A stretch of DNA of 12,502 bases from UHGV virus genome UHGV-1789726. The stretch is one strand, 5' to 3'. Of the stretch, positions 175 to 12,502 are shown one piece after another. The notes beneath the pieces are model-generated. The model saw only the letters and a list, made by a program, of their open reading frames with translations, was not told the DNA's origin and searched no databases. Numbering within the stretch: position 1 is the stretch's first letter; each line of letters starts with the position of its first letter. A program made the position numbers and the translations under genes. This DNA comes from a virus.

Positions 175-203
175 GTAACCTGCTATCTGAAGGAGGCTGC
201 CAC

Positions 204-398
204 ATGCTGGCTACTACCCCTACCCAAAAAACGCAATTTATCTGGATTATCGCCGCAGTTCGCCGCGATTGCCCGACAATTACCGCCAAAATTCATCATA
301 TTGCTGCCGAGTCTGAACGCGATGCTCGCCGTTCTCTGGTGCGCGATCACATCTGCTTTTTTGCTGGTCGTATCCGCATGGAGGTGGCACATGATTAA
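204..398 (+). CDS. Small early protein, Icd/Kil-like (host cell-division inhibitor family of P4-type prophages), 64 aa
   Basis: AGGAGG at 191-196, 7 nt before ATG 204. Translation (FIWIIAAVRRD...RRSLVRDHICFFAGRIRMEVAHD) resembles Icd-like proteins from memory, unverified. Stop overlaps next start (ATGATTAA). Confidence 0.55.
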   Translation: MLATTPTQKTQFIWIIAAVRRDCPTITAKIHHIAAESERDARRSLVRDHICFFAGRIRMEVAHD

Positions 399-609
399 AA
401 CCTACGATGTGCATATGGATCCCCTCGAACGCACAAGCCAGATCATCACACTGACAGAAGTGATTAACGACATTCTGGTGAGCAACTCTCCCTCACGAGA
501 CGAAAAACTGAAGGCGTTACTCGCGATATTGGACCTCGCCGTTCGTGACGTTCATTTCCTGCTGGAAGGTGGACAAATGCCATGCAAAACGGGGGCAACC
601 AATGAATAA
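391..609 (+). CDS. Hypothetical small protein, 72 aa (internal start of the 67..609 track ORF)
   Basis: GGAGG at 381-385 before ATG 391; start overlaps the previous stop; stop overlaps next start. Confidence 0.5.
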   Translation: MIKTYDVHMDPLERTSQIITLTEVINDILVSNSPSRDEKLKALLAILDLAVRDVHFLLEGGQMPCKTGATNE

Positions 610-796
610 CTCAATTAATACCCCTCGCCTTACGTCCGCACTTCAATTAATCGAGCAAGCAGCGGCTGTCCTGGTTGCTGTCAGTCTTTCGGCTGAAGAA
701 ATGGACGCTGCTGATGTCGTGGATGCGATTAAAGCGTGCTCATCTTTGGTTAACGATGCCCGTGCCGAGCTGGTAATTCTTGGGGGTGAAAAATGA
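602..796 (+). CDS. Hypothetical small protein, 64 aa (internal start of the 545..796 track ORF)
   Basis: ATG 602 preceded by a G-rich SD-like run (GGGGG); overlaps previous stop 607-609; stop overlaps next ATG at 793. Confidence 0.45.
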   Translation: MNNSINTPRLTSALQLIEQAAAVLVAVSLSAEEMDAADVVDAIKACSSLVNDARAELVILGGEK

Positions 797-1056
797 ATAT
801 CAACTTAATTTATCGTCATCCGTGTGAGCTGGAAATTGAATCATTGCTGGGGCGCGAAGAGCCATATCCAGACACATTCACTCCCGCAGATTGCGCGACT
901 GAACGGCTTACCAGAGCGCGCACAGGTCTGGTTCATGTGATGAATGAGATTGTTCCCTCGGTGGGAGGGGAACAGGCGACAGTAATCAATAGCTGGCTAC
1001 AAAAAGTTACCTCCCTGATAGATATCGGTTTAATCGATGTGGAGAGTGCGAAATGA
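793..1056 (+). CDS. Hypothetical protein, 87 aa
   Basis: GGGGGTGA SD-like sequence before ATG 793; ATGA overlaps at both ends. Confidence 0.55.
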   Translation: MNINLIYRHPCELEIESLLGREEPYPDTFTPADCATERLTRARTGLVHVMNEIVPSVGGEQATVINSWLQKVTSLIDIGLIDVESAK

Positions 1057-1274
1057 CCAACATCCAGCTCATTGAAGCGCAATGTCGCATCGAACAGGTT
1101 CAGACTGTTTTAGGGTTCTGGCTTGAAGGGGCCAGCCCCAGCAACAGAGACAAGTTAATGATTGGCGCGGTTATGTCACTGCTCAATGGCGTACCAGAAG
1201 CTATTCAGGAAGCGGACGAATTGTTGGGCAAATATGAGTTACAGAATCATTCAGGCGAGGCGAAACATGAATAA
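1053..1274 (+). CDS. Hypothetical protein, 73 aa
   Basis: GGAGAG before ATG 1053; overlaps neighbours at both ends. Confidence 0.5.
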   Translation: MTNIQLIEAQCRIEQVQTVLGFWLEGASPSNRDKLMIGAVMSLLNGVPEAIQEADELLGKYELQNHSGEAKHE

Positions 1275-1869
1275 TTTCTTAACTTTCCATGCAGAAGCAA
1301 CGCCTGACGGCGTAAACATCATGTACCGCAGCAACGATGGCATGACAGAACGCGTTGAGACCGTCTCATATATTGATGCCGTAAATCGTCTGGATGCCGG
1401 GGATTATGACGATAAACCAGATGAAGGCATGTTTATACATCTCGCTATTGCCAGTGGCGGCAACCAGGGATATTTCGATTACACATCACAGCATCACGTG
1501 ATTATGTGGCGCTGGCTGATAGCAACAGCATTCATCAATGAAATGAGAAAGGAAAACGGCACTGTCAGCATCATTGATGATACTGGCAATCCTTCCGAAG
1601 TGGCTGTTTATTCCAACGGCATCGTCGCCATGCCGCTGTATCCAGTAGCAGAGCGCCTCGCTATGGCAAACAACATTGAGGGCGCGATGATAGAACGTTT
1701 TGGCATCGAGTCTGGCACAGAACGCGCCATCATTTTCTACAGAGCCATGATGGATGTGGAACAAGGAGCACTGACTCCATTTGGTCGTGAAACGCTTGCT
1801 GAACTTCACAACAGCTTTATAGCTGAACTGAATGAAAACGGCATGCCAGCGGAACCAGTGACGCACTGA
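1267..1869 (+). CDS. Hypothetical protein, 200 aa (internal start of the 1162..1869 track ORF)
   Basis: ATG 1267 overlaps the stop of the previous gene (ATGAATAA); GAGG upstream. The N-terminal extension in the track has no RBS and overlaps the previous gene. Confidence 0.6.
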   Translation: MNNFLTFHAEATPDGVNIMYRSNDGMTERVETVSYIDAVNRLDAGDYDDKPDEGMFIHLAIASGGNQGYFDYTSQHHVIMWRWLIATAFINEMRKENGTVSIIDDTGNPSEVAVYSNGIVAMPLYPVAERLAMANNIEGAMIERFGIESGTERAIIFYRAMMDVEQGALTPFGRETLAELHNSFIAELNENGMPAEPVTH

Positions 1870-1879
1870 GGATGGAGCC

Positions 1880-2221
1880 ATGATTACTAAAAATTTCCGA
1901 CTGAATGCGCTGGCAAATAAGTATGCGTCAGCACTGTATAACCACATTACCTCCACCAGCGGCGGGGACTATTTCATGATTGATGCGGACGGAGAGGCCG
2001 TCCGTGTGGAAATCGTCAATGGAGTAAAAGGCGTTCGCAGCCTGATCGATAGTTACGCACTGGCAGCCATGAAAGTGTTCTACCCGCAGTGGGAAACCGT
2101 GGGGATCGAGCTTCTTGATCGTTGCGTCACTAAGGACAGATTGACTGACGTCGGGCGTGAGATATGGCAAAGCATGGTTAATGACATGGGCGCAACTGTA
2201 GCGGGAGGTTCTCATGCGTGA
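1880..2221 (+). CDS. Hypothetical protein, 113 aa
   Basis: GAGGATGGAG SD-like sequence 5-8 nt before ATG 1880; 10-nt gap from previous stop. Confidence 0.65.
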   Translation: MITKNFRLNALANKYASALYNHITSTSGGDYFMIDADGEAVRVEIVNGVKGVRSLIDSYALAAMKVFYPQWETVGIELLDRCVTKDRLTDVGREIWQSMVNDMGATVAGGSHA

Positions 2222-2585
2222 AAATGTAGAAATGGCGCTTAGCTCCGCAATCGGAGAGCAGGTGGCAAAGATTGCTGGTGCTGTGTGGATTCATAACCTT
2301 CATTCTACTGGTGAAGAGAAAATGGCAATTCAGACGCCAGAGGGACGCACCATTACTACATCTCTGAAGCCGTCAGATGTTTGTGATCTGATTTGCGCAT
2401 TCATGTACCCAGCAATGAGGACTGTCCACGGCGATAAGTGGAAACTTGCGACAACCGCTGAATTTGATATGTGGCTAAACAATGATGGCATGCTGACTGA
2501 TTACGGAATAACCAAGTGGCAGATGCTAGTTAGCCATATCGCAAACGCTATAGACCACGTGGGGTACGGTGATGCGAAACATTGA
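2214..2585 (+). CDS. Hypothetical protein, 123 aa
   Basis: GGGAGG before ATG 2214; start overlaps previous stop; stop overlaps primase start. Confidence 0.65.
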   Translation: MRENVEMALSSAIGEQVAKIAGAVWIHNLHSTGEEKMAIQTPEGRTITTSLKPSDVCDLICAFMYPAMRTVHGDKWKLATTAEFDMWLNNDGMLTDYGITKWQMLVSHIANAIDHVGYGDAKH

Positions 2586-5328
2586 TCTTATCCGTCAGGT
2601 TATCAGTGCGTCTGAAAACAACTGGCCTCATGTGCTGGGCTGCCTGAACATAAATGTCCCTGACTCTCCGCGCCGTCATGCTCCCTGCCCTGCATGTGGG
2701 GGCAAAGATCGATTCCGGTTCGATGACAACGGGCGCGGTAGCTTCATCTGTAATCAGTGCGGCGCTGGTGATGGGCTGGATTTAATTAAACGCGTAAATA
2801 ACTGCGACACAACAGAGGCGGCGCTTCTTGCCGCTGATGTTCTGGGTATTGATTACCGGACAACGGAAACACCAGAAGCCACCAGCCAGAAACGGGAACA
2901 ACTGGAAACCGAGCGCCAGCGACGCGAACAGGAGCGCCTGAAAAGGGCAGAGAAGGACGAACAACAAAGACGGGATACGTTTTCCCGTCAGTTTGATGAC
3001 ATGCGCAGAAAGGCTGTAAACGGCAAATCTGATTATCTGGTTGCGAAAGGGGTAGGTGATTTTACATTCCCCGTGTTGCCCGATGGATCTCTGTTGCTGG
3101 CGCTGGTGGATAAATCCGGCGCAGTAACAGCAGCACAGACTATTACCTCACATGGTGAAAAAAGACTCCTGACAGGTTCAGCAAAGCGAGGGGCATATCA
3201 CGCCATAAACGCACCAGAAACAACACAGAGCATCTTAATCGCAGAAGGGCTGGCAACGGCATTATCTGCCCATTTAATGCGTCCAGAGGCGCTGACAGTG
3301 GCGGCGATTGATGCCGGGAACCTGTTATATGTCGCCCAGGTACTGCGGGATAAATTTCCTTCAGCACAAATCATCATTGCTGCGGATAACGACCACAGCG
3401 AAGGAAGACAAAACACGGGGAGAATAGCAGCAGAAAAAGCAGCTTTATCTGTTTCTGGATGGGTGGCATTACCCCCGACAGATCACAAAGCAGACTGGAA
3501 TGATTACCACCAAAAACACGGCATTAAATGCGCCACAGAAGCGTTCAATAAGTCAATGTACCAACCACAGGGTAATGGCGTGAAACAGGAGCCACAGACC
3601 ATTGAGGGAAGCGATTTTAAGGTTATGGATACCGATCCACTGAAACCAAGAATAGAAAGCCGCGAGGATGGTATTTATTGGGTATCTCCGAGAGCTGACA
3701 GCCAGAGTGGAGAAATCATCAATAACGAAAGCTGGTTATGTTCTCCGTTAAGCGTTATCGGTACTGGCAGAGACGATAAAGACCAGTATCTCATTCTTCG
3801 CTGGCTGTCGTTTGGTTCTGAAACGCCGACAACCGCTGCCATTCCACTGGCTGATATTGGTGAACGTGAAGGATGGCGCACACTTAAAGCTGGTGGGGTA
3901 AATGTCACGACCAAAAGCAGCCTCAGAGCAATACTGGCAGACTGGCTACAACGCAGTGGCTCTCGTGAATTGTGGCGTGTTGCTCATGCCACTGGCTGGC
4001 AATGCGGAGCGTACATCATGCCTGATGGGGAAATCATCGGAACACCTGAAAATCCTGTGCTGTTCAGCGGGAGAAGCTCAGCCGCAGCCGGATATACCGT
4101 CTCAGGGAGCGCGAAAAGCTGGCGTGATAACGTGGCGCGTCTGGCCTTTGGTAACTATTCAATGATGACCGGGATCGGCGCAGCACTGGCAGCGCCATTG
4201 ATTGGGCTGGTGGGCGCTGACGGGTTCGGCATTCATTTCTATGAGCAGTCGAGCGCAGGTAAGACCACCACGGCAAACGTGGCGAGCAGCTTATACGGCA
4301 ACCCTGATTTACTGCGGCTGACGTGGTACGGAACCGCGCTGGGGCTGGCAAATGAGGCCGCCGCCCACAATGACGGACTAATGCCGCTTGATGAAGTTGG
4401 TCAGGGCGCTGATCCTGTCAGCGTTTCACAGTCTGCCTATGCGTTATTTAACGGTGTAGGGAAACTGCAAGGCGCTAAAGATGGTGGAAACCGGGATCTA
4501 AAACGCTGGCGTACAGTGGCAATCAGCACCGGAGAAATGGATTTAGAAACATTTATCGCTACTTCCGGGCGAAAAACCAAAGCCGGGCAACTGGTGCGAC
4601 TGCTGAATATTCCGTTGAGTAAAGCAGTACGCTTTCACGATTACCAGAACGGAAAACAGCACGCAGACGCACTGAAAGACGCTTACCAGCATCACCACGG
4701 CGCGTCCGGGCGTGAGTGGATTAAATGGCTGGCAGACCACCAGCAACAGGCTATTAAAACCGTTCGTGACTGCGAAAGCAGATGGAGAAGCCTGATCCCA
4801 TCCGATTATGGTGAGCAGGTTCACCGTGTAGCCGCGCGATTTGCCATTCTGGAGGCCGCATTGTTGTTAGGCGAGGTTGTAACAGGCTGGGATGCTCAGA
4901 CATGCCGTGATGCGATACAGCACAGCTATAACGCATGGTTGCGCGAGTTCGGCACAGGTAACAAAGAGCATCAGCAGATTATTGAACAAACGGAGGCATT
5001 TCTTAATGCCTATGGGCTTAGCCGTTTTGCACCATTTCCATACAGCCCGGCAGATTTGCCCATCAAAGATTTAGCCGGATACCGTCAGCGTGGAGAACAT
5101 GACGAAAGCCCAATGATTTTCTACACATTCCCGGCCACATTTGAAAAGGAGATCGCATGTGGTTTCAACGCAAAACAGTTTGCTGAAGTGTTGAAAAAAG
5201 CCGGGATGCTAACCCCACCAAACAGCGGTCGTGGATACCAAAGAAAATCACCACGTATTCAGGGACGACAAATAAACGTTTATGTACTCAATTACCAGCC
5301 AGGAGATTACAACTCATCTGAAGAATGA
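2572..5328 (+). CDS. Primase-helicase (P4 alpha / PICI Pri-Rep type): N-terminal zinc ribbon, TOPRIM, C-terminal P-loop domain; about 918 aa
   Basis: CPACGG...CNQCG zinc ribbon (nt ~2686-2766); TOPRIM signature with IAEG Glu (nt ~3244) and AADND (nt ~3385); SSAGKTT P-loop (nt ~4258). ATG 2572 preferred over the track's GTG 2569. Confidence 0.9.
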   Translation: MRNIDLIRQVISASENNWPHVLGCLNINVPDSPRRHAPCPACGGKDRFRFDDNGRGSFICNQCGAGDGLDLIKRVNNCDTTEAALLAADVLGIDYRTTETPEATSQKREQLETERQRREQERLKRAEKDEQQRRDTFSRQFDDMRRKAVNGKSDYLVAKGVGDFTFPVLPDGSLLLALVDKSGAVTAAQTITSHGEKRLLTGSAKRGAYHAINAPETTQSILIAEGLATALSAHLMRPEALTVAAIDAGNLLYVAQVLRDKFPSAQIIIAADNDHSEGRQNTGRIAAEKAALSVSGWVALPPTDHKADWNDYHQKHGIKCATEAFNKSMYQPQGNGVKQEPQTIEGSDFKVMDTDPLKPRIESREDGIYWVSPRADSQSGEIINNESWLCSPLSVIGTGRDDKDQYLILRWLSFGSETPTTAAIPLADIGEREGWRTLKAGGVNVTTKSSLRAILADWLQRSGSRELWRVAHATGWQCGAYIMPDGEIIGTPENPVLFSGRSSAAAGYTVSGSAKSWRDNVARLAFGNYSMMTGIGAALAAPLIGLVGADGFGIHFYEQSSAGKTTTANVASSLYGNPDLLRLTWYGTALGLANEAAAHNDGLMPLDEVGQGADPVSVSQSAYALFNGVGKLQGAKDGGNRDLKRWRTVAISTGEMDLETFIATSGRKTKAGQLVRLLNIPLSKAVRFHDYQNGKQHADALKDAYQHHHGASGREWIKWLADHQQQAIKTVRDCESRWRSLIPSDYGEQVHRVAARFAILEAALLLGEVVTGWDAQTCRDAIQHSYNAWLREFGTGNKEHQQIIEQTEAFLNAYGLSRFAPFPYSPADLPIKDLAGYRQRGEHDESPMIFYTFPATFEKEIACGFNAKQFAEVLKKAGMLTPPNSGRGYQRKSPRIQGRQINVYVLNYQPGDYNSSEE

Positions 5329-5353
5329 GCTTCTTCATGTGCGTAGAAAAGGC

Positions 5354-5464
5354 GTTGGTTCAGTTGGTTCAGTTGGTTCAATTTGTAAAGAGTATTGTTT
5401 TATAAGGATTTTATTCTTTTTATTGAACCAACACTGAACCAACAACACGGTATTTTGAACCAAC
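5354..5464. repeat. Iteron cluster / candidate origin: 3 tandem GTTGGTTCA, a 43-bp AT-rich spacer, then 3 inverted copies TGAACCAAC
   Basis: Direct copies at 5354-5362, 5363-5371, 5372-5380; AT-rich 5381-5423; inverted copies at 5424-5432, 5435-5443, 5456-5464 (11 bp and 21 bp centre-to-centre). Sits immediately 3' of the primase gene. Confidence 0.65.
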
Positions 5465-5784
5465 ACAATGTGACTGAATTGATGCGCACAACACCTGGCT
5501 GGCATCAGAGAGTGTTTTACGAGACTTTCGTAAAATCCTGTGTACAAGGGCGTGACGTTTTTGAAAGTGAGCACTACGAAATTTTCGTAGTTCAGAAAAC
5601 AGCCTCTGAGAAGTTGTTATGCCTGTTCAGCAAACCATCCGCATAGCTGATCGCGAATCAAATTACCAATGGAGCCAGAAGCAAGGGCAGAACTGAAAAG
5701 CGCCTGCCGTGAAGAGTAATGCGACACCATAAATATAGTTTTTAGAGTCCATAAAAAACCTGTCAAAACCTGACACACAGAACG

Positions 5785-5817
5785 ATGCCACCAGCTACTG
5801 AGCGGTGGCATTTTTTT
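5785..5817 (+). terminator. Rho-independent terminator
   Basis: 8-bp stem ATGCCACC (5785-5792) / GGTGGCAT (5804-5811) with an 11-nt loop, followed by a T7 run (5811-5817). Confidence 0.6.
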
Positions 5818-5912
5818 GTGCTATTTGTTTCATATTTTGCAATTACGATGATGAATATTGCGATTTGTGAAACTATAATAACTGTTGTTTTATACAGTTC
5901 TAAGGGGGCGTT

Positions 5913-6074
5913 ATGGCTATTTCAGTAAAGCCGGTATTGATAAGTGAGAAGCAAATGGAAGCGATAAAGAAAATTCAGGAAGAGCAGCGTAAAAAATCAG
6001 GAATTGGAGTAGCGCCAACTCTGCATGAAATTGCACGAGGGTTAATAGATAAGGCGCTGGCAGGCTGTATGTGA
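5913..6074 (+). CDS. Small ORF, 53 aa, absent from the ORF track; possible ribbon-helix-helix (Arc/MetJ-like) regulator
   Basis: AAGGGGG at 5902-5908, 4 nt before ATG 5913; stop TGA 6072-6074. Translation MAISVKPVLISEKQMEAIKKIQEEQRKKSGIGVAPTLHEIARGLIDKALAGCM has a strand-helix-helix layout. Fold assignment is inference. Confidence 0.45.
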   Translation: MAISVKPVLISEKQMEAIKKIQEEQRKKSGIGVAPTLHEIARGLIDKALAGCM

Positions 6075-6090
6075 AAATGGATGGCATCGC

Positions 6091-6552
6091 ATGGAACTAA
6101 AATTTATTGATAACCCTGTGCGATTACAGGCCTTTCTTAACGAGCCAGGCAATACCGAAAATATTGTTGAGCCGGGGCACACGTACTACATCAAGCCTGA
6201 TGCGGTATATCTCGGCATCTACGAAGGATTAGTGCTGGCTGGCGTTCATGAAGTGCGTAACTTCTGGCATAGCGTTGTTGAATGCCATGCGGTGTACGAC
6301 CCCGGATTCCGTGGTGAATATGCACTGCAAGGACATCGATTATTCTGCAAATGGCTTCTCGAAAACTCACCATTCCTTAACAGCATCACTATGGTTCCTG
6401 ACACCACGAAATACGGACGGGCAATTATCCGTTTGCTTGGCGCTACCCGTGTTGGTCACCTTGATGATGCTTATATCAGATGTGGTAAACCCGTCGGCGT
6501 AACGCTTTATCAGTTAACTCGGCAACAATATAAGGAATTCAGCGAATGTTAA
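6091..6552 (+). CDS. Hypothetical protein, 153 aa; first gene of the four-gene cassette
   Basis: Long ORF, non-repetitive sequence; stop overlaps next start (6546). Confidence 0.7.
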   Translation: MELKFIDNPVRLQAFLNEPGNTENIVEPGHTYYIKPDAVYLGIYEGLVLAGVHEVRNFWHSVVECHAVYDPGFRGEYALQGHRLFCKWLLENSPFLNSITMVPDTTKYGRAIIRLLGATRVGHLDDAYIRCGKPVGVTLYQLTRQQYKEFSEC

Positions 6553-7223
6553 TTACCCATATAGCTCATAAACATCTCAATCGTGCCGTATACGAAAAAG
6601 GCGGTGATGGTGGTGCCTCTAAAGCTCAGGCGAAGGCCCAGCAGCAGGCAATTGATTTGCAGCGCGAGCAGTGGAATACGGTGATGAATAATCTCAAGCC
6701 GTATGCAGAAGTCGGATTGCCTGCTTTACAACAACTACAAGGACTGATGACTCTGGAAGGGCAGAATAAAGCCGCGAATGATTTCTTTGGTTCTGGTTTA
6801 TATAAAACACAGGCAGATCAGGCCCGTTATCAGAACCTTGTCTCAGCAGAAGCTACCGGGGGGCTTGGCTCAACAGCTACCAGTAACCAGTTATCTTCCA
6901 TTGCGCCCATGCTTTATAACAATTGGCTTAGTGGGCAAATGCAAAATTATGGAAACCTGCTAAATGTCGGGATGAATGCGGCATCAGGGCAGGCAACGGC
7001 AGGGCAAAACTACGCCAATAATACCGGACAACTCTTGCAGGGGCTTGGCGCTATTCGTGCAGGTCAGGCGCAGCAGCCATCCAGTCTTGCGCGTGGTATT
7101 GGTGGGGCAGCATCAGGCGCTTTAGCGGGTGCGCAACTTGGTTCCGTTGTTCCTGGAATAGGAACTGCGGCCGGCGCTATTGGTGGTGGGCTTATTGGTC
7201 TTGTTGGGGGGCTTGGATTCTAA
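6546..7223 (+). CDS. Q/N/A/G-rich protein, 225 aa, with C-terminal glycine-zipper hydrophobic segment; internal-virion/ejection-protein-like
   Basis: AAGGAA 9 nt before ATG 6546. C-terminus GIGGAASGALAGAQLGSVVPGIGTAAGAIGGGLIGLVGGLGF (nt ~7083-7220). Stop overlaps next start (TAATG). Confidence 0.75.
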   Translation: MLITHIAHKHLNRAVYEKGGDGGASKAQAKAQQQAIDLQREQWNTVMNNLKPYAEVGLPALQQLQGLMTLEGQNKAANDFFGSGLYKTQADQARYQNLVSAEATGGLGSTATSNQLSSIAPMLYNNWLSGQMQNYGNLLNVGMNAASGQATAGQNYANNTGQLLQGLGAIRAGQAQQPSSLARGIGGAASGALAGAQLGSVVPGIGTAAGAIGGGLIGLVGGLGF

Positions 7224-8542
7224 TGGCGACATGGCAACTTGGCGGGCTGCCTAGCATGGCACCGCAAAATGATAATGCTCCTCGTTCTTCCGTTCCTCAG
7301 CCTGTGCAGTATCAGCAGCAGCCAAACGTAGGTTTAATGGCGCTACAGGGGCTAAGAGGCGTTGCTGAGATTAATCAGCAGGCGCAAATTTCCCAGCAGC
7401 TAAAAGAATATCAGGCACGGTTGGGTAGTGCGGTAGCTAATAATGATCGTGTTGGCGTGCAGAAGTTAATGGCCCAGTATCCCCAGTTTATGGCTGATTC
7501 TCAAAAACAGATGGGATTCATTGATGCTGAGCAAAATCGGCAGACCGCTGACGCTGCCATGAATCTGCGTCTTGCGTCACAAACTGGAGATCCACTGACC
7601 ATGCAGAAGGCCATTCAGCAGGCAAATCCAGTATTACAGCGATTTGGTCTTCCTGCTGAAGAGGTTTATCAGTCTTGGCAGAATGACCCACAGGAATTCA
7701 ACAGAATCACTGACCTCATCCACCTCCATGCTGATCCAAATAGTTACTTTAGTGTTCAAGAGAAGCAGCAAGGGCAGAGTATTGCACAGCAGAACGCAGA
7801 TACATCTGCATATAATGCTCAGGTTAATGCGGAGCAGGGTAATCGGCGGCTCGATATGGAGCAGTTCAAAGTCCTATCCGATAACCAACTACGCACGAGA
7901 GAAATGGTTCTGAAAGCACGACTTGGACGTGCTCAAAATGACATCGAGAGAGACAAGCTCAATGCTGAACTGAGCAAGGTACAGCAGGCGAAAGTGGAGA
8001 AGATGAACGATAAAATTAATACTGTTGCAGGTAATATCGACTCCTTGAACTCTGCGCTTGAAGTGGGTCATGAACTGGCGGGAATTGTAGGGAAACATCC
8101 TTCGGCCGTTACCCGTTCGCAGAACTATAACCCCCTGACGCTGGGGTTTGGATTCCTCCCTGATGTAGCAGAAGACACACGAAGCCTACGCGCCAAAGCT
8201 GATGAATACAACCTAAAGGTTATTCTGCCTAGCCTAAAAGGTACTTTTGGCTCTAACCCAACCGAAGGGGAAAGGGCTGCCCTTATGCAATCTCAAAATG
8301 GCATTAAGTCAGCAACCAGCAATGAGGCATTTTTGCGAGAGTTGAATAAAGCGCAGGACGTAATTATTCGAATGCAGAAACGACAGATTGCCGGGCTCGG
8401 TATTCCTGTAACCAAATCTAAGGACGAAGAAACTGATACCAAAATGCTGTTGCAGGATCCTTCACTGGTTAAGGATTATGTGACCGCACATGGCTATCTG
8501 CCGGAAAGTTACTATCAGGCAAAACTTAAGGGATGGCAATGA
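7223..8542 (+). CDS. Gln-rich, predicted helical/coiled-coil protein, 439 aa; internal-virion/ejection-protein-like
   Basis: Long ORF coupled at both ends; Q/A/N-rich composition. Confidence 0.8.
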   Translation: MATWQLGGLPSMAPQNDNAPRSSVPQPVQYQQQPNVGLMALQGLRGVAEINQQAQISQQLKEYQARLGSAVANNDRVGVQKLMAQYPQFMADSQKQMGFIDAEQNRQTADAAMNLRLASQTGDPLTMQKAIQQANPVLQRFGLPAEEVYQSWQNDPQEFNRITDLIHLHADPNSYFSVQEKQQGQSIAQQNADTSAYNAQVNAEQGNRRLDMEQFKVLSDNQLRTREMVLKARLGRAQNDIERDKLNAELSKVQQAKVEKMNDKINTVAGNIDSLNSALEVGHELAGIVGKHPSAVTRSQNYNPLTLGFGFLPDVAEDTRSLRAKADEYNLKVILPSLKGTFGSNPTEGERAALMQSQNGIKSATSNEAFLRELNKAQDVIIRMQKRQIAGLGIPVTKSKDEETDTKMLLQDPSLVKDYVTAHGYLPESYYQAKLKGWQ

Positions 8543-11259
8543 TGGCACAACTGACAGAAAAACAGAAAGCCTATTCCCGTCATCTCGATGAAAAATATGG
8601 TTTCCCATCAGGGACGATGGAAACATTAGTTGGCAATGAATCTAGTGGTAACGGAAGTGCCGAGTCACCGAAAGGAGCTAGAGGATTTGCTCAACTGATG
8701 CCCTCAGTAATGAGTGATGCTGGTTATCGTGGAACAGATCCGCGCTCACTGCCATTTGAAAAGCAAATGGATATCGCAGCAAACCATCTCAATAAAGGAA
8801 TGAAGCGATTTGGTGATATAGGTATGGCATTGGCTGGGTATAATTCTGGCTATGCTCGTATTAATGCCGTAAGAAACGGTAAATCTACACTGCCAGATGA
8901 AACGGCTAATTACGTAAGTAAATTTGCAGATGCCGGAATAATCCCTGATGACAGTGAAATCTTGCAGTTTGCACAAACCAGTCAACATCGCAATCTTCAG
9001 CAGCCTGACTACTCAGAGCTTGATAAAGAAATCTCTCAGGTGGGAGATATTTCTGCATGGGAAGCAAAACGTCAGCAATTTAAGAACATAGAAGCAGGAC
9101 TACCAACAGCCAGTTCATGGGAGCAGAAAAGAGCTCAGTTTCTCGCCGATGAAAATGCCGGGGAACCGCAGCAGCAAGTAGCCAAGTCTAACCTTAATCC
9201 TGAGATGGAATATCTTTCGCCAGGACTGAAAGCTGCGCCAGAGCAGATGGCCAGAGGGATTGCTAATATACCGTTTGATGTAATGGACGCAGGCGTGGGG
9301 GTAGTCAATGCGGCGCAATCAGCCGGAGCATGGGCAGCTCAGAAGCTTGGTGTGGGTGATGGCACATACACGCCCATATCACCTGTCTTTCGCCCAGTAG
9401 ACCAACCTACAGATCCATACGCGCAGGCTGGTGAGCAGCTAGCACCTTACCTTATTACAGGATTAGGTGCAGGAAAGGCAGCTACCGCAGCTTCTTCAGT
9501 TGCCAACGCTCCACGTGCTGAACGTGCGGCCACAAAGGTGGCTAGTATGTTGGCAGAAAACCTGCCAGGTACATTGGTGAACGCCCAAAAGAACGGGCAG
9601 ATCAGCCCAGAAGACCTAGCAAAAGAGACAGGTATTGGCCTAGCAGGATCGCTAGGAGCACGCGCTTTAATAAAGAGCGGACAGACAGCCAGTGACGTAA
9701 TGCGAGATGTATTGCGGAGTAATACAAATCAATCAGGCCATGTGTTAGGGGCAGCAAATACTCTGGAAACCGCCAATGATGTATCGAAAGCAGCGCGTTC
9801 TGCCGTAGGCCGAGAGCATATCGCATCGCAGGCATCAAACGTCAGAGATGATGTCGCTAAGGCGGCGAAAATCACTGGTATTAATATCAACACCCTGACG
9901 CCTGGAATGCGCTCAGGTAGTCGTGGAATTGCCCAAGCAGAAGGTGTTCTGGCATCAACTCCTGGGAATGTTCAGGATGCTCACCTTACGGCCTTCAATG
10001 AAATATCCTCAAAGTTGAATAAGCAGTTGTCTGATTTCGGTGCTGAGTCTGGAAGCGCATCAGAAAAAAGCGCAGCAATTAAAGAGCGCATCATCGCGAG
10101 CCTCAGTGATATGAAAACAGCAGAGAATATGGCATGGGCAGAACTGCGAAGCACGATGCCACGCGAAAGGATGAAAATGAGTAATGGGATGGCTGTCGTC
10201 CAAGCAGAAAAAGCAGCCAATGTTCCACTCAGCCCGGAGATGAAACAGTTTCAGGCTGCCAACAACCAAGGTGGCGGCATAACCTTCGACGGGATGAAGG
10301 CATGGCGTGCTAAGTTTGCTGATGCTGAACAAGCAAACACCCGGGCAGGTAAGGCCAATGCCGCCCGGATTGCCGGAGAAATGCGCAGAGCTATCACTGA
10401 TGACATGCGCATCATGGCTGAAAAAGGAAACTTCCTCACAGAATGGCAGAAAGCTAACGATCTCTCTAAAAGTTACATTATCGCCAAACAAAATGCCGAA
10501 TCTGTTTTTGGTCGAGATCTCGCATCAGACGCTATGGTAAGAAAAGGTGCCGATACGCTTAAGGCATCCGCAAACACTGGAACTGGAGCTTTTCACCGTC
10601 TTATCTCCGCGCTGCCGGAAGCAGAACGCCAACCAGCAATAGCATCTATTCTTCAGCATGCTGTGGCGCAGGGAGAGAAGGGAGGAATCGGTGAAGAGTC
10701 TGGTATCCAGTATTTTGCCAAGCTCATGACCCAGCAGAATGTAAACGCCATCAGTCGTCATGCGCCAGATCTCGGTAGAATGATGAAAGAGTTCGGTGTA
10801 CTCGCTAAAGCCAGCACCAGACCGCAGCGATACGTAGAGCGCACGGGAAGAACAACTGAGGCTCTCAAAACGCTCGATTCAGGCCTTCCAAAGATCGTCG
10901 GCGTGATTATGAACGGAGTTCAACAGTCAGGTGCGATCGCTGGAGGCTTTGGCGGTGGTGTAATTGGTTCGATTAGTGGTTTGGTTGCTGGTGGCGCGCT
11001 GAGAAATACTGTGGCTAAGATTGGGGCGACAAGAAGTGGTAGGTATGCGATAGAGAAAGCCGTTCAGGAAGCTACAAAAGCAGTGCGCGCAGGGGCATCA
11101 CCAGCAGCGATCGCCGCAGCAGAGAAACGATTTTCGGCCAATAAAATTGCCATGAAAGCAATTCGTGATGCCGTTGGGGCTGAAGAATTCGTGAAACTGA
11201 CAAGGGCCGGGATTGTAGCTACCCTCAGTGGCATGAAAGATGTTAGCGAATGGGAATAG
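8533..11259 (+). CDS. Large protein, 908 aa, with N-terminal family-1 lytic transglycosylase (SLT) motif set and a glycine-zipper segment near the C-terminus
   Basis: Motifs E-S (GNESSGN, nt ~8638), G-x-x-Q (GARGFAQLMP, nt ~8692), A-Y-N-x-G (ALAGYNSGYA, nt ~8839); GAIAGGFGGGVIGSISGLVAGGA at nt ~10900-11000. Start may be 8533, 8539 or 8542; AAGGGA at 8526-8531 favours 8539. Confidence 0.85.
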   Translation: MAMMAQLTEKQKAYSRHLDEKYGFPSGTMETLVGNESSGNGSAESPKGARGFAQLMPSVMSDAGYRGTDPRSLPFEKQMDIAANHLNKGMKRFGDIGMALAGYNSGYARINAVRNGKSTLPDETANYVSKFADAGIIPDDSEILQFAQTSQHRNLQQPDYSELDKEISQVGDISAWEAKRQQFKNIEAGLPTASSWEQKRAQFLADENAGEPQQQVAKSNLNPEMEYLSPGLKAAPEQMARGIANIPFDVMDAGVGVVNAAQSAGAWAAQKLGVGDGTYTPISPVFRPVDQPTDPYAQAGEQLAPYLITGLGAGKAATAASSVANAPRAERAATKVASMLAENLPGTLVNAQKNGQISPEDLAKETGIGLAGSLGARALIKSGQTASDVMRDVLRSNTNQSGHVLGAANTLETANDVSKAARSAVGREHIASQASNVRDDVAKAAKITGININTLTPGMRSGSRGIAQAEGVLASTPGNVQDAHLTAFNEISSKLNKQLSDFGAESGSASEKSAAIKERIIASLSDMKTAENMAWAELRSTMPRERMKMSNGMAVVQAEKAANVPLSPEMKQFQAANNQGGGITFDGMKAWRAKFADAEQANTRAGKANAARIAGEMRRAITDDMRIMAEKGNFLTEWQKANDLSKSYIIAKQNAESVFGRDLASDAMVRKGADTLKASANTGTGAFHRLISALPEAERQPAIASILQHAVAQGEKGGIGEESGIQYFAKLMTQQNVNAISRHAPDLGRMMKEFGVLAKASTRPQRYVERTGRTTEALKTLDSGLPKIVGVIMNGVQQSGAIAGGFGGGVIGSISGLVAGGALRNTVAKIGATRSGRYAIEKAVQEATKAVRAGASPAAIAAAEKRFSANKIAMKAIRDAVGAEEFVKLTRAGIVATLSGMKDVSEWE

Positions 11260-11409
11260 ACGCTCTAACTAACAAAACCATAATAGCCAAGGACGGCATA
11301 CTGATATTGAGCCAACTATCAAAATTCCATATCACATTACGGGCCTGTGGCTTACATTCGCTTACAGTGATGATAATTTATAACCACGCAATTCTTAGGT
11401 GAGATTATC

Positions 11410-12108
11410 ATGATTAAAAATCTTCTTTTAATATTATCCCTGTCATTATTGGCTGGATGCGTACAAAAACCGTTAGTAACGGTCAATGCTTTATCTTCCG
11501 GGCAATCTGTCGGTAAGAAGTTCTTGATCATCCCCGCAAGCCAAGAACTTTGGAACACCAAACAGATTGAATACACTCAAATAGCTACGGTAGTAGCCGC
11601 CAGTTTATCAAGCCAAGGATATACACAAGTTAAAGATGAAAAATTGGCTGACCAGGTAATTCTCTTGAACTTTTTGAGAAGCGGGGCCATTTCAAATACT
11701 CGTAATGTAACCATCCCAATATACGGGCAAACTGGTGTGAGCTCAGCAACAACGTACGGAAACTCGAACACCACGTTCAATAGTTATGGTGGTGGCTACG
11801 GTACAGCTAATACCACTGGAACGGCAACAACAGTTTATACGCCTACTTATGGAATTACTGGCGCGTATAACACAACTGTGACGGACACGTTCTACGGCGC
11901 AGGGGTGATACTCCAGTCGTTTGATGCCAAGGCTTATCTCAATAATAGGCAGATTAATATGTTATGGAAAGTTGGTAGCTCAGTCGTCTCGCAACAGTCT
12001 GATGGAATTGCTGATTACAAGGGGTTGGCGAGAATAGCCGCTAGCTATGCCGGGAAAAATACAGAAGGTGATATAACTTTTAATGTTGACCCTAAAGCAC
12101 CAAATTAA
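11410..12108 (+). CDS. Putative lipoprotein, 232 aa, with Thr/Gly/Tyr/Asn-rich central region
   Basis: AGGTGA 7 nt before ATG 11410; signal peptide plus lipobox MIKNLLLILSLSLLAGC. Region looks more AT-rich than the rest by eye. Confidence 0.8.
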   Translation: MIKNLLLILSLSLLAGCVQKPLVTVNALSSGQSVGKKFLIIPASQELWNTKQIEYTQIATVVAASLSSQGYTQVKDEKLADQVILLNFLRSGAISNTRNVTIPIYGQTGVSSATTYGNSNTTFNSYGGGYGTANTTGTATTVYTPTYGITGAYNTTVTDTFYGAGVILQSFDAKAYLNNRQINMLWKVGSSVVSQQSDGIADYKGLARIAASYAGKNTEGDITFNVDPKAPN

Positions 12109-12115
12109 CTAATAA

Positions 12116-12137
12116 GCCCGGTACGCCGGGCATTTAT
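12116..12137 (+). terminator. Weak terminator-like hairpin after the lipoprotein gene
   Basis: GCCCGG (12116-12121) / CCGGGC (12126-12131) with a TACG loop, followed by ATTTAT; T-tract is poor. Confidence 0.35.
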
Positions 12138-12236
12138 GCCCCTATTATTCATGAATCGCTTTTTCTAGAAGGTATGCGACAAACGTTAAGTGACATTGCC
12201 TACACATTCGGGGCGGGATTTCAAATCCGCTCCCAG

Positions 12237-12408
12237 TTGATGGGGGGCGTTACAGTACGCGCATATCCGCTTTATGTGAAACAGGAAGATTTTTCTGATA
12301 TCACTGCCACAGCAAAACACCAATTTCGTGACCAGTACGCGCGCGAGGGGTATCAGTTGCAAAAAATTTTGCAACTACGTCCGACCAGTACGCACACGAT
12401 GGCGGGGG
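12237..12408. repeat. Repeat-rich noncoding region: three copies of CAGTACGC, two longer direct repeats flanking a 20-bp palindrome
   Basis: CAGTACGC at 12253-12260, 12333-12340, 12386-12393; GACCAGTACGC at 12330-12340 and 12383-12393; palindrome GTTGCAAAA-AA-TTTTGCAAC at 12356-12375; GATGG(G/C)GGGG at 12237-12247 and 12398-12408. Confidence 0.45.
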
Positions 12409-12502
12409 ATACCATAAAACTGTTCTCTACATGAGACAGAGTGGTGGTGAACCGCCCCGGGAATCCTGGAGACTAAACTTCCTGAGAAAGAGGTAAACAG
12501 GA

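Follow-up and report, generated by a model that had tools for sequence, protein, structure and literature searches.

A probable replication origin immediately downstream of the primase-helicase gene of an EcCIMP1-type PICI

We analyzed a 12,502-nt stretch of viral DNA (UHGV virus genome UHGV-1789726; hereafter the window) in which six copies of a single 9-mer, arranged symmetrically around an AT-rich center, lie just behind a gene for a large primase-helicase (positions 5354-5464). This arrangement had been predicted from the sequence alone to be an origin of replication read by the adjacent protein, and we asked whether the array has this role, which part of the protein would recognize it, and to which known replication systems it is related. 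We consider it likely that this array serves an EcCIMP1-type PICI as its proximal origin and is the cognate binding site of the primase-helicase encoded just upstream (named Pri-Rep here). On the broader statement, the array is very probably either the origin or the proximal half of one.

Anatomy of the array and identity of the element

The primase ORF ends at position 5328 and the first repeat begins 25 bp past the stop codon, so that the array does lie directly after the gene, as first described. The left arm consists of three contiguous exact copies of GTTGGTTCA on the + strand (5354-5362, 5363-5371 and 5372-5380), and the right arm of three exact copies in the inverted orientation (- strand; 5424-5432, 5435-5443 and 5456-5464), which read TGAACCAAC, the reverse complement of GTTGGTTCA, on the + strand. 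These two opposed sets enclose a core of 43 bp (5381-5423; ATTTGTAAAGAGTATTGTTTTATAAGGATTTTATTCTTTTTAT) with an AT content of 83.7%, compared with 51% for the window, which is a predicted DNA-unwinding element. All coordinates and counts of the original prediction were confirmed. Helical-turn spacing holds for the right arm (starts 11 and 21 bp apart, about one and two helical turns) and not for the left arm, which has a period of 9 bp.

All six exact copies of the 9-mer in the 12.5-kb window fall within these 111 bp. Allowing at most one mismatch, the window contains 9 matches as compared with 2.8 ± 1.7 in shuffled sequences, and none of 200 shuffles reached 9. The complete island carries 12 copies of GTTGGTTCA, all located inside two arrays, and 96 kb of flanking non-island E. 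coli DNA contain none (0.74 expected), which speaks against a common dispersed genomic repeat. No other 43-mer of the window is as unstable as the core (nearest-neighbour dG of -43.8 vs a mean of -59.0, sd 3.8; rank 1 of 12,460, some 4 sd away from the mean), and the same holds for the whole island. The array is a non-chance pattern.

We scanned the whole window against Rfam (E ≤ 1) and obtained no match at the array, the sole match being a C4 RNA at 63-150, and therefore dropped the reading of the array as an RNA element. A promoter and terminator scan of positions 5200-6200 returned no sigma-70-like promoter and no terminator within the array, and a full-text literature search for the 9-mer retrieved only primers and unrelated sequences. 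Three ORFs overlap the array (5282-5437 on the + strand, 5335-5574 on the - strand and 5395-5646 on the + strand); they are unannotated in RefSeq and were rejected as genes, since invariant repeats separated by spacers with indels are not a coding-like pattern.

Positions 190-12450 of the window are 98.8% identical to EcCIMP1 of E. coli MP1, an element that excises, circularises and is transduced only with the P22-like helper Kapi1, and whose att core lies at the island ends (Pick et al., PMC11773190). This identity places the element of the window among the PICIs, induction, packaging and transfer having been shown for EcCIMP1 itself. Neither “iteron” nor “origin of replication” occurs in the text of the EcCIMP1 paper (PMC11773190). 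The region is present in 573 of 5,426 complete E. coli genomes. In strain cq9 it forms an island of ~19 kb between yicC and dinD, encoding an integrase, an AlpA-like HTH protein, an antirepressor, DUF4222, Ash, the primase, ejection proteins and PerC. Upstream of the primase gene, the window carries an Ash-family fragment, small ORFs and a C4-type antisense RNA (63-150, + strand; Rfam RF01695, 79.9 bits, E-value 9e-15). The latter is followed by a small Icd-like ORF (204-398, + strand; PHROG “transcriptional repressor”, 4.8e-12; annotated as Icd-like by RefSeq in loci L082 and L083), the two together forming a P1/P4-style immunity cassette within a PICI.

On the other side of the array, just 3' of it, are two 15-bp palindromes (TACGAnnnnnTCGTA; 5518-5532 and 5575-5589, 57 bp apart; 2 found vs 0.12 expected) that look like operators of a dimeric regulator. 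The first is also present in a 12.2-kb circular variant of the island, for which the stretch shown stops before the position of the second. Behind the array, from 5465 on, come ~330 nt that seem to be non-coding and end in a strong intrinsic terminator (stem at 5794-5809 followed by a T run); this stretch could encode a small RNA. Next comes a 53-aa ORF (5913-6074) without Pfam or PHROG match, a homologue of which lies downstream of the primase gene in 8 of the 15 relatives sharing the same 9-mer (class A below). Positions 6091-11259 encode homologues of P22 ejection proteins: gp14 (DUF2824), gp7, gp20 and a 908-aa gp16-like protein with an SLT domain. The PICI that carries this block has no capsid genes. 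In the island the block is flanked by the two iteron arrays, and it is absent from the circular variant and from almost all relatives (with the exception of L032). The circular variant (L083, NZ_CP148430.1) is a closed E. coli record of 12,152 bp deposited as “plasmid” with no replicon type listed; it encodes the same primase, lacks the ejection genes and has both arrays, separated by only 1.8 kb. Similar small circles with related primases occur in Klebsiella (H24, H25 and H29). Such circles may be excised, replicating satellites captured by assembly, and the NZ_CP148430.1 circle could also be an assembly of excised, non-replicating circles.

The initiator and its match to the iteron word

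The Pri-Rep gene (2569..5328, + strand) encodes 919 aa from a GTG codon, the annotated start being the ATG at 2572 (918 aa). Pfam matches (Zn_Ribbon_Prim, Toprim_3 and DUF927) delimit a zinc-ribbon and TOPRIM primase followed by a DUF927 (SF3-type) helicase, and a DNA-binding domain is predicted at the C-terminus. Residues 403-814 match the SaPI initiator/helicase of PDB entry 8tch (E-value 1.4e-11), which together with DUF927 makes Pri-Rep a Rep-type self-loading helicase homologous to SaPI Rep. The protein is modular: residues 8-362 are P4-alpha-like (window positions 2569-3650 correspond to residues 1-360), and many loci match residues ~1-347 only (L028, L030 and L033-L037), indicating that the same primase domain is joined there to other helicase and origin-binding modules.

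The C-terminal domain (residues 785-919; 4921..5325, + strand) had only a sub-threshold Pfam match, to the Cch helix-turn-helix domain, and phmmer and profile searches of residues 785-919 against PDB sequences returned nothing meaningful. A first AF2 model built on a shallow alignment (~80% identity) was unusable (pLDDT 40). A second model, built on a more diverse alignment of 22 sequences, is of moderate confidence only (pLDDT 73, pTM 0.67); in it, a helix-helix unit leads into a long beta-hairpin. A Foldseek search of this model against the PDB gave no significant match. In this model the C-terminus folds as the winged-helix domain of SaPI Rep/Cch, a predicted domain of the iteron-reading type. 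Because the sequence match to 8tch covers residues 403-814 only, the fold match of residues 785-919 is largely independent evidence, the two overlapping only at residues 785-814.

To compare the array across relatives, we fetched 80 loci with related primases (one genome per species) and inspected the DNA after the stop codon of full-length homologues, yielding a comparison set of 29 loci (33-99% identity) with 6 kb of flank covered. An origin-like array follows the initiator gene at the same offset in all 29. Counted from the stop codon, forward copies lie at about +26/+35/+44 and inverted copies at about +96/+107/+128, with an AT-rich gap of drifting sequence in between. The geometry is constant and the repeated word varies by lineage. 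Among these elements with homologous primases, the 9-mer GTTGGTTCA itself recurs in 16 loci that span a dozen genera, one of them a Morganella locus whose protein is only 55% identical; the words of other lineages are GTTGTCTCA, ACGGGTTAY, TCGGTTCA, GTGGTTCA, AGTGTGTCA, GGTGTAAC, TGGGATAAG, GTGGGAACA and GTCGGTTTT. In an alignment of nine species sharing GTTGGTTCA, which range from Escherichia to Erwinia, Tatumella and Lonsdalea, the outermost copy of the left arm and each of the three copies of the right arm were invariant; the remaining two left-arm copies were degenerate in some relatives, and spacers and flanks drifted, with indels. Invariant copies between drifting, indel-bearing spacers point to a binding-site footprint, which is neither a coding nor a neutral pattern. 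Two loci (L029 and L041) have frameshifted primase genes (26 and 46 in-frame stops on straight translation) followed by still recognizable arrays of TGGGATAAG, and are possibly decaying islands.

We then asked which protein follows the word. Among 23 island proteins or segments, the primase alone was present in 15 of 15 independent loci of class A (word GTTGGTTCA). In a sliding-window comparison, primases of the same iteron class were closer to the window protein only over the last ~50 residues (~871-919), where identities were 0.85 and 0.75 within the class as compared with 0.62 and 0.51 for other classes, the rest of the primase carrying no iteron-class signal. Likewise, segment 821-919 was the only primase segment with higher identity within class A (73.8%) than in close non-A loci (64.3%). 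Comparing class A (17 sequences) with class B (word GTTGTCTCA; 4 sequences), residues were disjoint in 9 of 919 alignment columns, and 5 of these 9 were contiguous at 892-897, which read RKSPRI in class A and GRV-RE in class B. In class D, whose iteron GTCGGTTCA differs by one base, the same patch reads RKTPRI (L016) or RKTLRI (L040). These residues (window positions 5242..5259, + strand) correspond to strand 108-113 of the model, the first strand of the hairpin, i.e. the wing, and constitute a candidate specificity patch.

The comparison between loci thus points to an iteron-cognate specificity of the Rep type, located at ~871-919 and especially at 892-897, and agrees with the claim that the array is the cis site of the adjacent primase, its word co-varying only with the C-terminus of that protein. 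The independent switches that inform this co-variation are few, mainly A vs B (possibly one lineage, four loci) and A vs D, and it is less informative in distant classes, where the entire C-terminal domain has diverged.

A second array and the alternatives to a proximal origin

The 12 copies of GTTGGTTCA in the complete island are shared between the array described above (array 1; 20555-20665 in locus L001) and a second array of six perfect copies (array 2; 28697-28817 in L001, 9853-9973 in L082 and 8436-8556 in L083), located ~8 kb downstream in L001 and outside the window. Array 2 is present in EcCIMP1, in the yicC-dinD island and in the circular variant, at 1.8-8.5 kb from array 1. Read on the opposite strand, it consists of three tandem copies, an AT-rich core and three copies at 21-bp spacing, and is thus a mirror image of array 1, the first 21 bp of the AT-rich core being identical between the two. 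Its core is less extreme (dG of -47.5 vs -43.8), and it overlaps a TATAAT-like box and ends 37 bp before the perC start codon. In EcCIMP1 (L082), the right arm of array 1 is spaced at 21/21 bp as a repeated 21-bp unit (TGAACCAACAACACGGTATTT), compared with 11/21 in the window, so that copy positions shift between the two yet stay near whole helical turns.

A second cluster adjoins the first, at +150 to +450, in 20 of the 29 relatives, which makes a two-part site the rule. In L022, L024 and L014 the second half takes the form “three at 21 bp, then three tandem” and directly adjoins the first half; in L003 and L012 perC directly follows the array or arrays; and in Serratia (L052) the second cluster is distal, at +4785 to +4900. 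From the relatives with adjoining halves we infer an ancestral origin of about 300 bp in which the two halves formed one continuous unit; in EcCIMP1-type islands, cargo including the ejection genes now lies between them. That both halves keep perfect repeats suggests that both arrays are still used. Array 2 probably cooperates with array 1, and by analogy with ori and crr of P4 the EcCIMP1-type origin may be bipartite.

Since both halves may still be in use, we kept as the main rival a role in which Pri-Rep binds array 1 as a crr-like set required in cis, or as a copy-number-control (handcuffing) set, while replication starts at array 2, 5' of perC, or requires that the two arrays pair. Such an organization is found in P4: its annotated GenBank record has crr, a region with iterons pointing both ways, right behind the alpha gene, and ori at a distance of 4.5 kb. 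In P4 replication starts at this distant ori and not at the cluster next to the gene, and by this analogy array 1 may not be the start site itself. The perfect six-copy mirror array of EcCIMP1-type islands, the distal cluster of Serratia and the adjacent second clusters of the 20 relatives all fit this role. It is array 1, however, that is universally conserved at a fixed offset (29/29 loci) and that holds the least stable core of the island, while the origin-binding part of Pri-Rep is not P4-like. Moreover, the rep-proximal array is the functional ori in SaPIs and in EcCICFT073 (PMC9371898, PMC6092414), which resemble the island either in the helicase and the type of C-terminal domain of the initiator or in layout. 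We therefore regard a purely auxiliary array 1 as unlikely.

The position of array 1 between two transcription units would also suit a transcriptional operator without direct replication role, serving autoregulation by Pri-Rep, or control by another island regulator of read-through from the primase operon into the genes behind it. Plasmid iteron initiators commonly repress their own genes, and iteron binding at array 2, which overlaps the TATAAT-like box 5' of perC, could affect transcription. An operator, however, would need neither symmetric arms nor an unstable AT core, the scan of 5200-6200 detected no sigma-70-like promoter, the primase alone co-occurs with the word, and the binding domain is, in the predicted model, that of a replication initiator, all of which makes this reading very improbable. 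We give even less credence to a packaging or recombination signal (pac for the helper terminase, or a site for the island recombinase). EcCIMP1 is packaged specifically by Kapi1 (PMC11773190), and intergenic repeats downstream of a replication module would be a plausible place for its pac site; yet the word tracks the primase C-terminus rather than the helper type or the integrase, it is the same in islands with and without P22-type genes, and the att core of EcCIMP1 is at the island ends (PMC11773190).

Under the favored reading of array 1 as the proximal origin, we infer binding, melting and initiation at the array, as well as bidirectionality, as follows. Upon helper-phage induction and excision, Pri-Rep would be expressed and its C-terminal winged-helix domains would bind the two opposed sets of GTTGGTTCA iterons, so that a helicase assembly would be brought to each side of the 43-bp core, the two facing in opposite directions. 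The core would then melt, the SF3-type helicase would load itself, the N-terminal TOPRIM domain would prime and a host polymerase would extend, so that the circular island would be amplified and then packaged in P22-like (Kapi1-type) capsids. We also considered a more elaborate, joint reading that we hold to be doubtful as a whole: a ~300-bp origin split by P22-type ejection cargo, the mirror halves of which would cooperate over 2-8 kb through Pri-Rep pairing (in the manner of P4 ori/crr or of handcuffing), with array 2 coupling Pri-Rep occupancy to perC and the patch at 892-897 acting as a portable recognition code, by which replicon specificity would be set among islands residing in the same cell.

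A proximal origin would define the replication module of EcCIMP1, a widespread E. coli satellite in whose description an origin is not mentioned. The roughly ten iteron words carried on one conserved scaffold amount to a natural experiment in initiator-iteron specificity, including one near-isogenic protein pair in which the C-terminal domain differs mainly at the six-residue wing patch, and swaps of the domain or patch could predict which islands cross-replicate. The ejection-gene cargo between the origin halves bears on how satellites acquire helper-derived genes.

Comparison with known replication systems

In iteron plasmids (P1 incC/incA, F, RK2), initiator-binding repeats adjoin an AT-rich unwinding element, and additional sets of iterons, located beyond the minimal origin, take part in copy control through pairing. 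Their initiators (RepA, RepE, TrfA) are non-helicases that recruit the host DnaA and DnaB, whereas no such initiator proteins or DnaA boxes were identified in the island.

The likeness to P4 that had been proposed holds for the N-terminal primase domain and fails for the origin-binding part and the iteron word. P4 alpha is a multifunctional primase-helicase with origin-binding activity, as is Pri-Rep (by prediction for origin binding), and the two proteins share 33% identity over residues 8-362 (E-value 2e-41), the primase domain. Beyond these residues, BLASTP detected no similarity in the helicase and origin-binding parts. Both elements have a gene-proximal cluster and a second cluster kilobases away, and the island carries a C4/CI-type antisense RNA as P4 does. 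The P4 type 1 repeat, however, is an 8-mer (GGTGAACA/TGTTCACC) that differs from the island 9-mer and is absent from 5354-5464, and the gene-proximal cluster of P4 is crr rather than the start site.

Closer in design are the origins of Gram-negative PICIs, which were defined by the same layout as those of SaPIs, a pri-ori plasmid of EcCICFT073 replicating only with both parts intact (PMC6092414). We located the island of CFT073, taken to be EcCICFT073, and found it to be of the same element class (int, alpA, Icd-like, DUF4222, primase, ori, perC), in which tandem copies of CTGTCTACC at a 9-bp period begin just past the stop codon of the primase gene, and an AT-rich stretch and copies in the opposite orientation are present as well, as in the window. 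The iteron word differs, and BLASTP detected no similarity between the 584-aa CFT073 primase and the 919-aa TOPRIM-DUF927 protein of the window, which led us to reject the window initiator as one of the experimentally tested EcCICFT073 type. The resemblance is thus one of design only, with an initiator of a different lineage.

SaPI origins consist of 6-12 iterons immediately downstream of rep, at least two on each side of a central AT-rich region and in opposite directions, which are bound by a winged-helix domain in the Rep C-terminal domain with a cognate specificity shown by EMSA (PMC9371898). At the level of sequence, the array has every feature by which SaPI and PICI origins are recognized, and the proposed kinship with pri-rep-ori modules of this type is upheld by the layout kept in 29 relatives, the SaPI Rep-like helicase and the C-terminal fold (PMC9371898, PMC6092414). 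As in SaPI1, SaPIbov1 and SaPI5 (PriRep5), the origin would lie immediately 3' of the initiator gene, with short iterons in two opposed sets around an AT-rich center. The initiator is likewise a self-loading SF3-type helicase, fused to a primase as in SaPI5, its helicase core being homologous by sequence and its C-terminal domain, in the model, by fold. The island differs from SaPIs in its Gram-negative host, its P4-alpha-like zinc-ribbon/TOPRIM primase module, its additional array set apart from the first and its 9-mer iterons (penta- or hexanucleotides in SaPIs), and the cognate specificity read from co-variation here was read from EMSA there. The array therefore extends a known design, that of the PICI/SaPI origin, to a TOPRIM-DUF927 initiator and does not overturn current understanding; the details that it adds are the candidate specificity patch and the separated, mirror-image second array.
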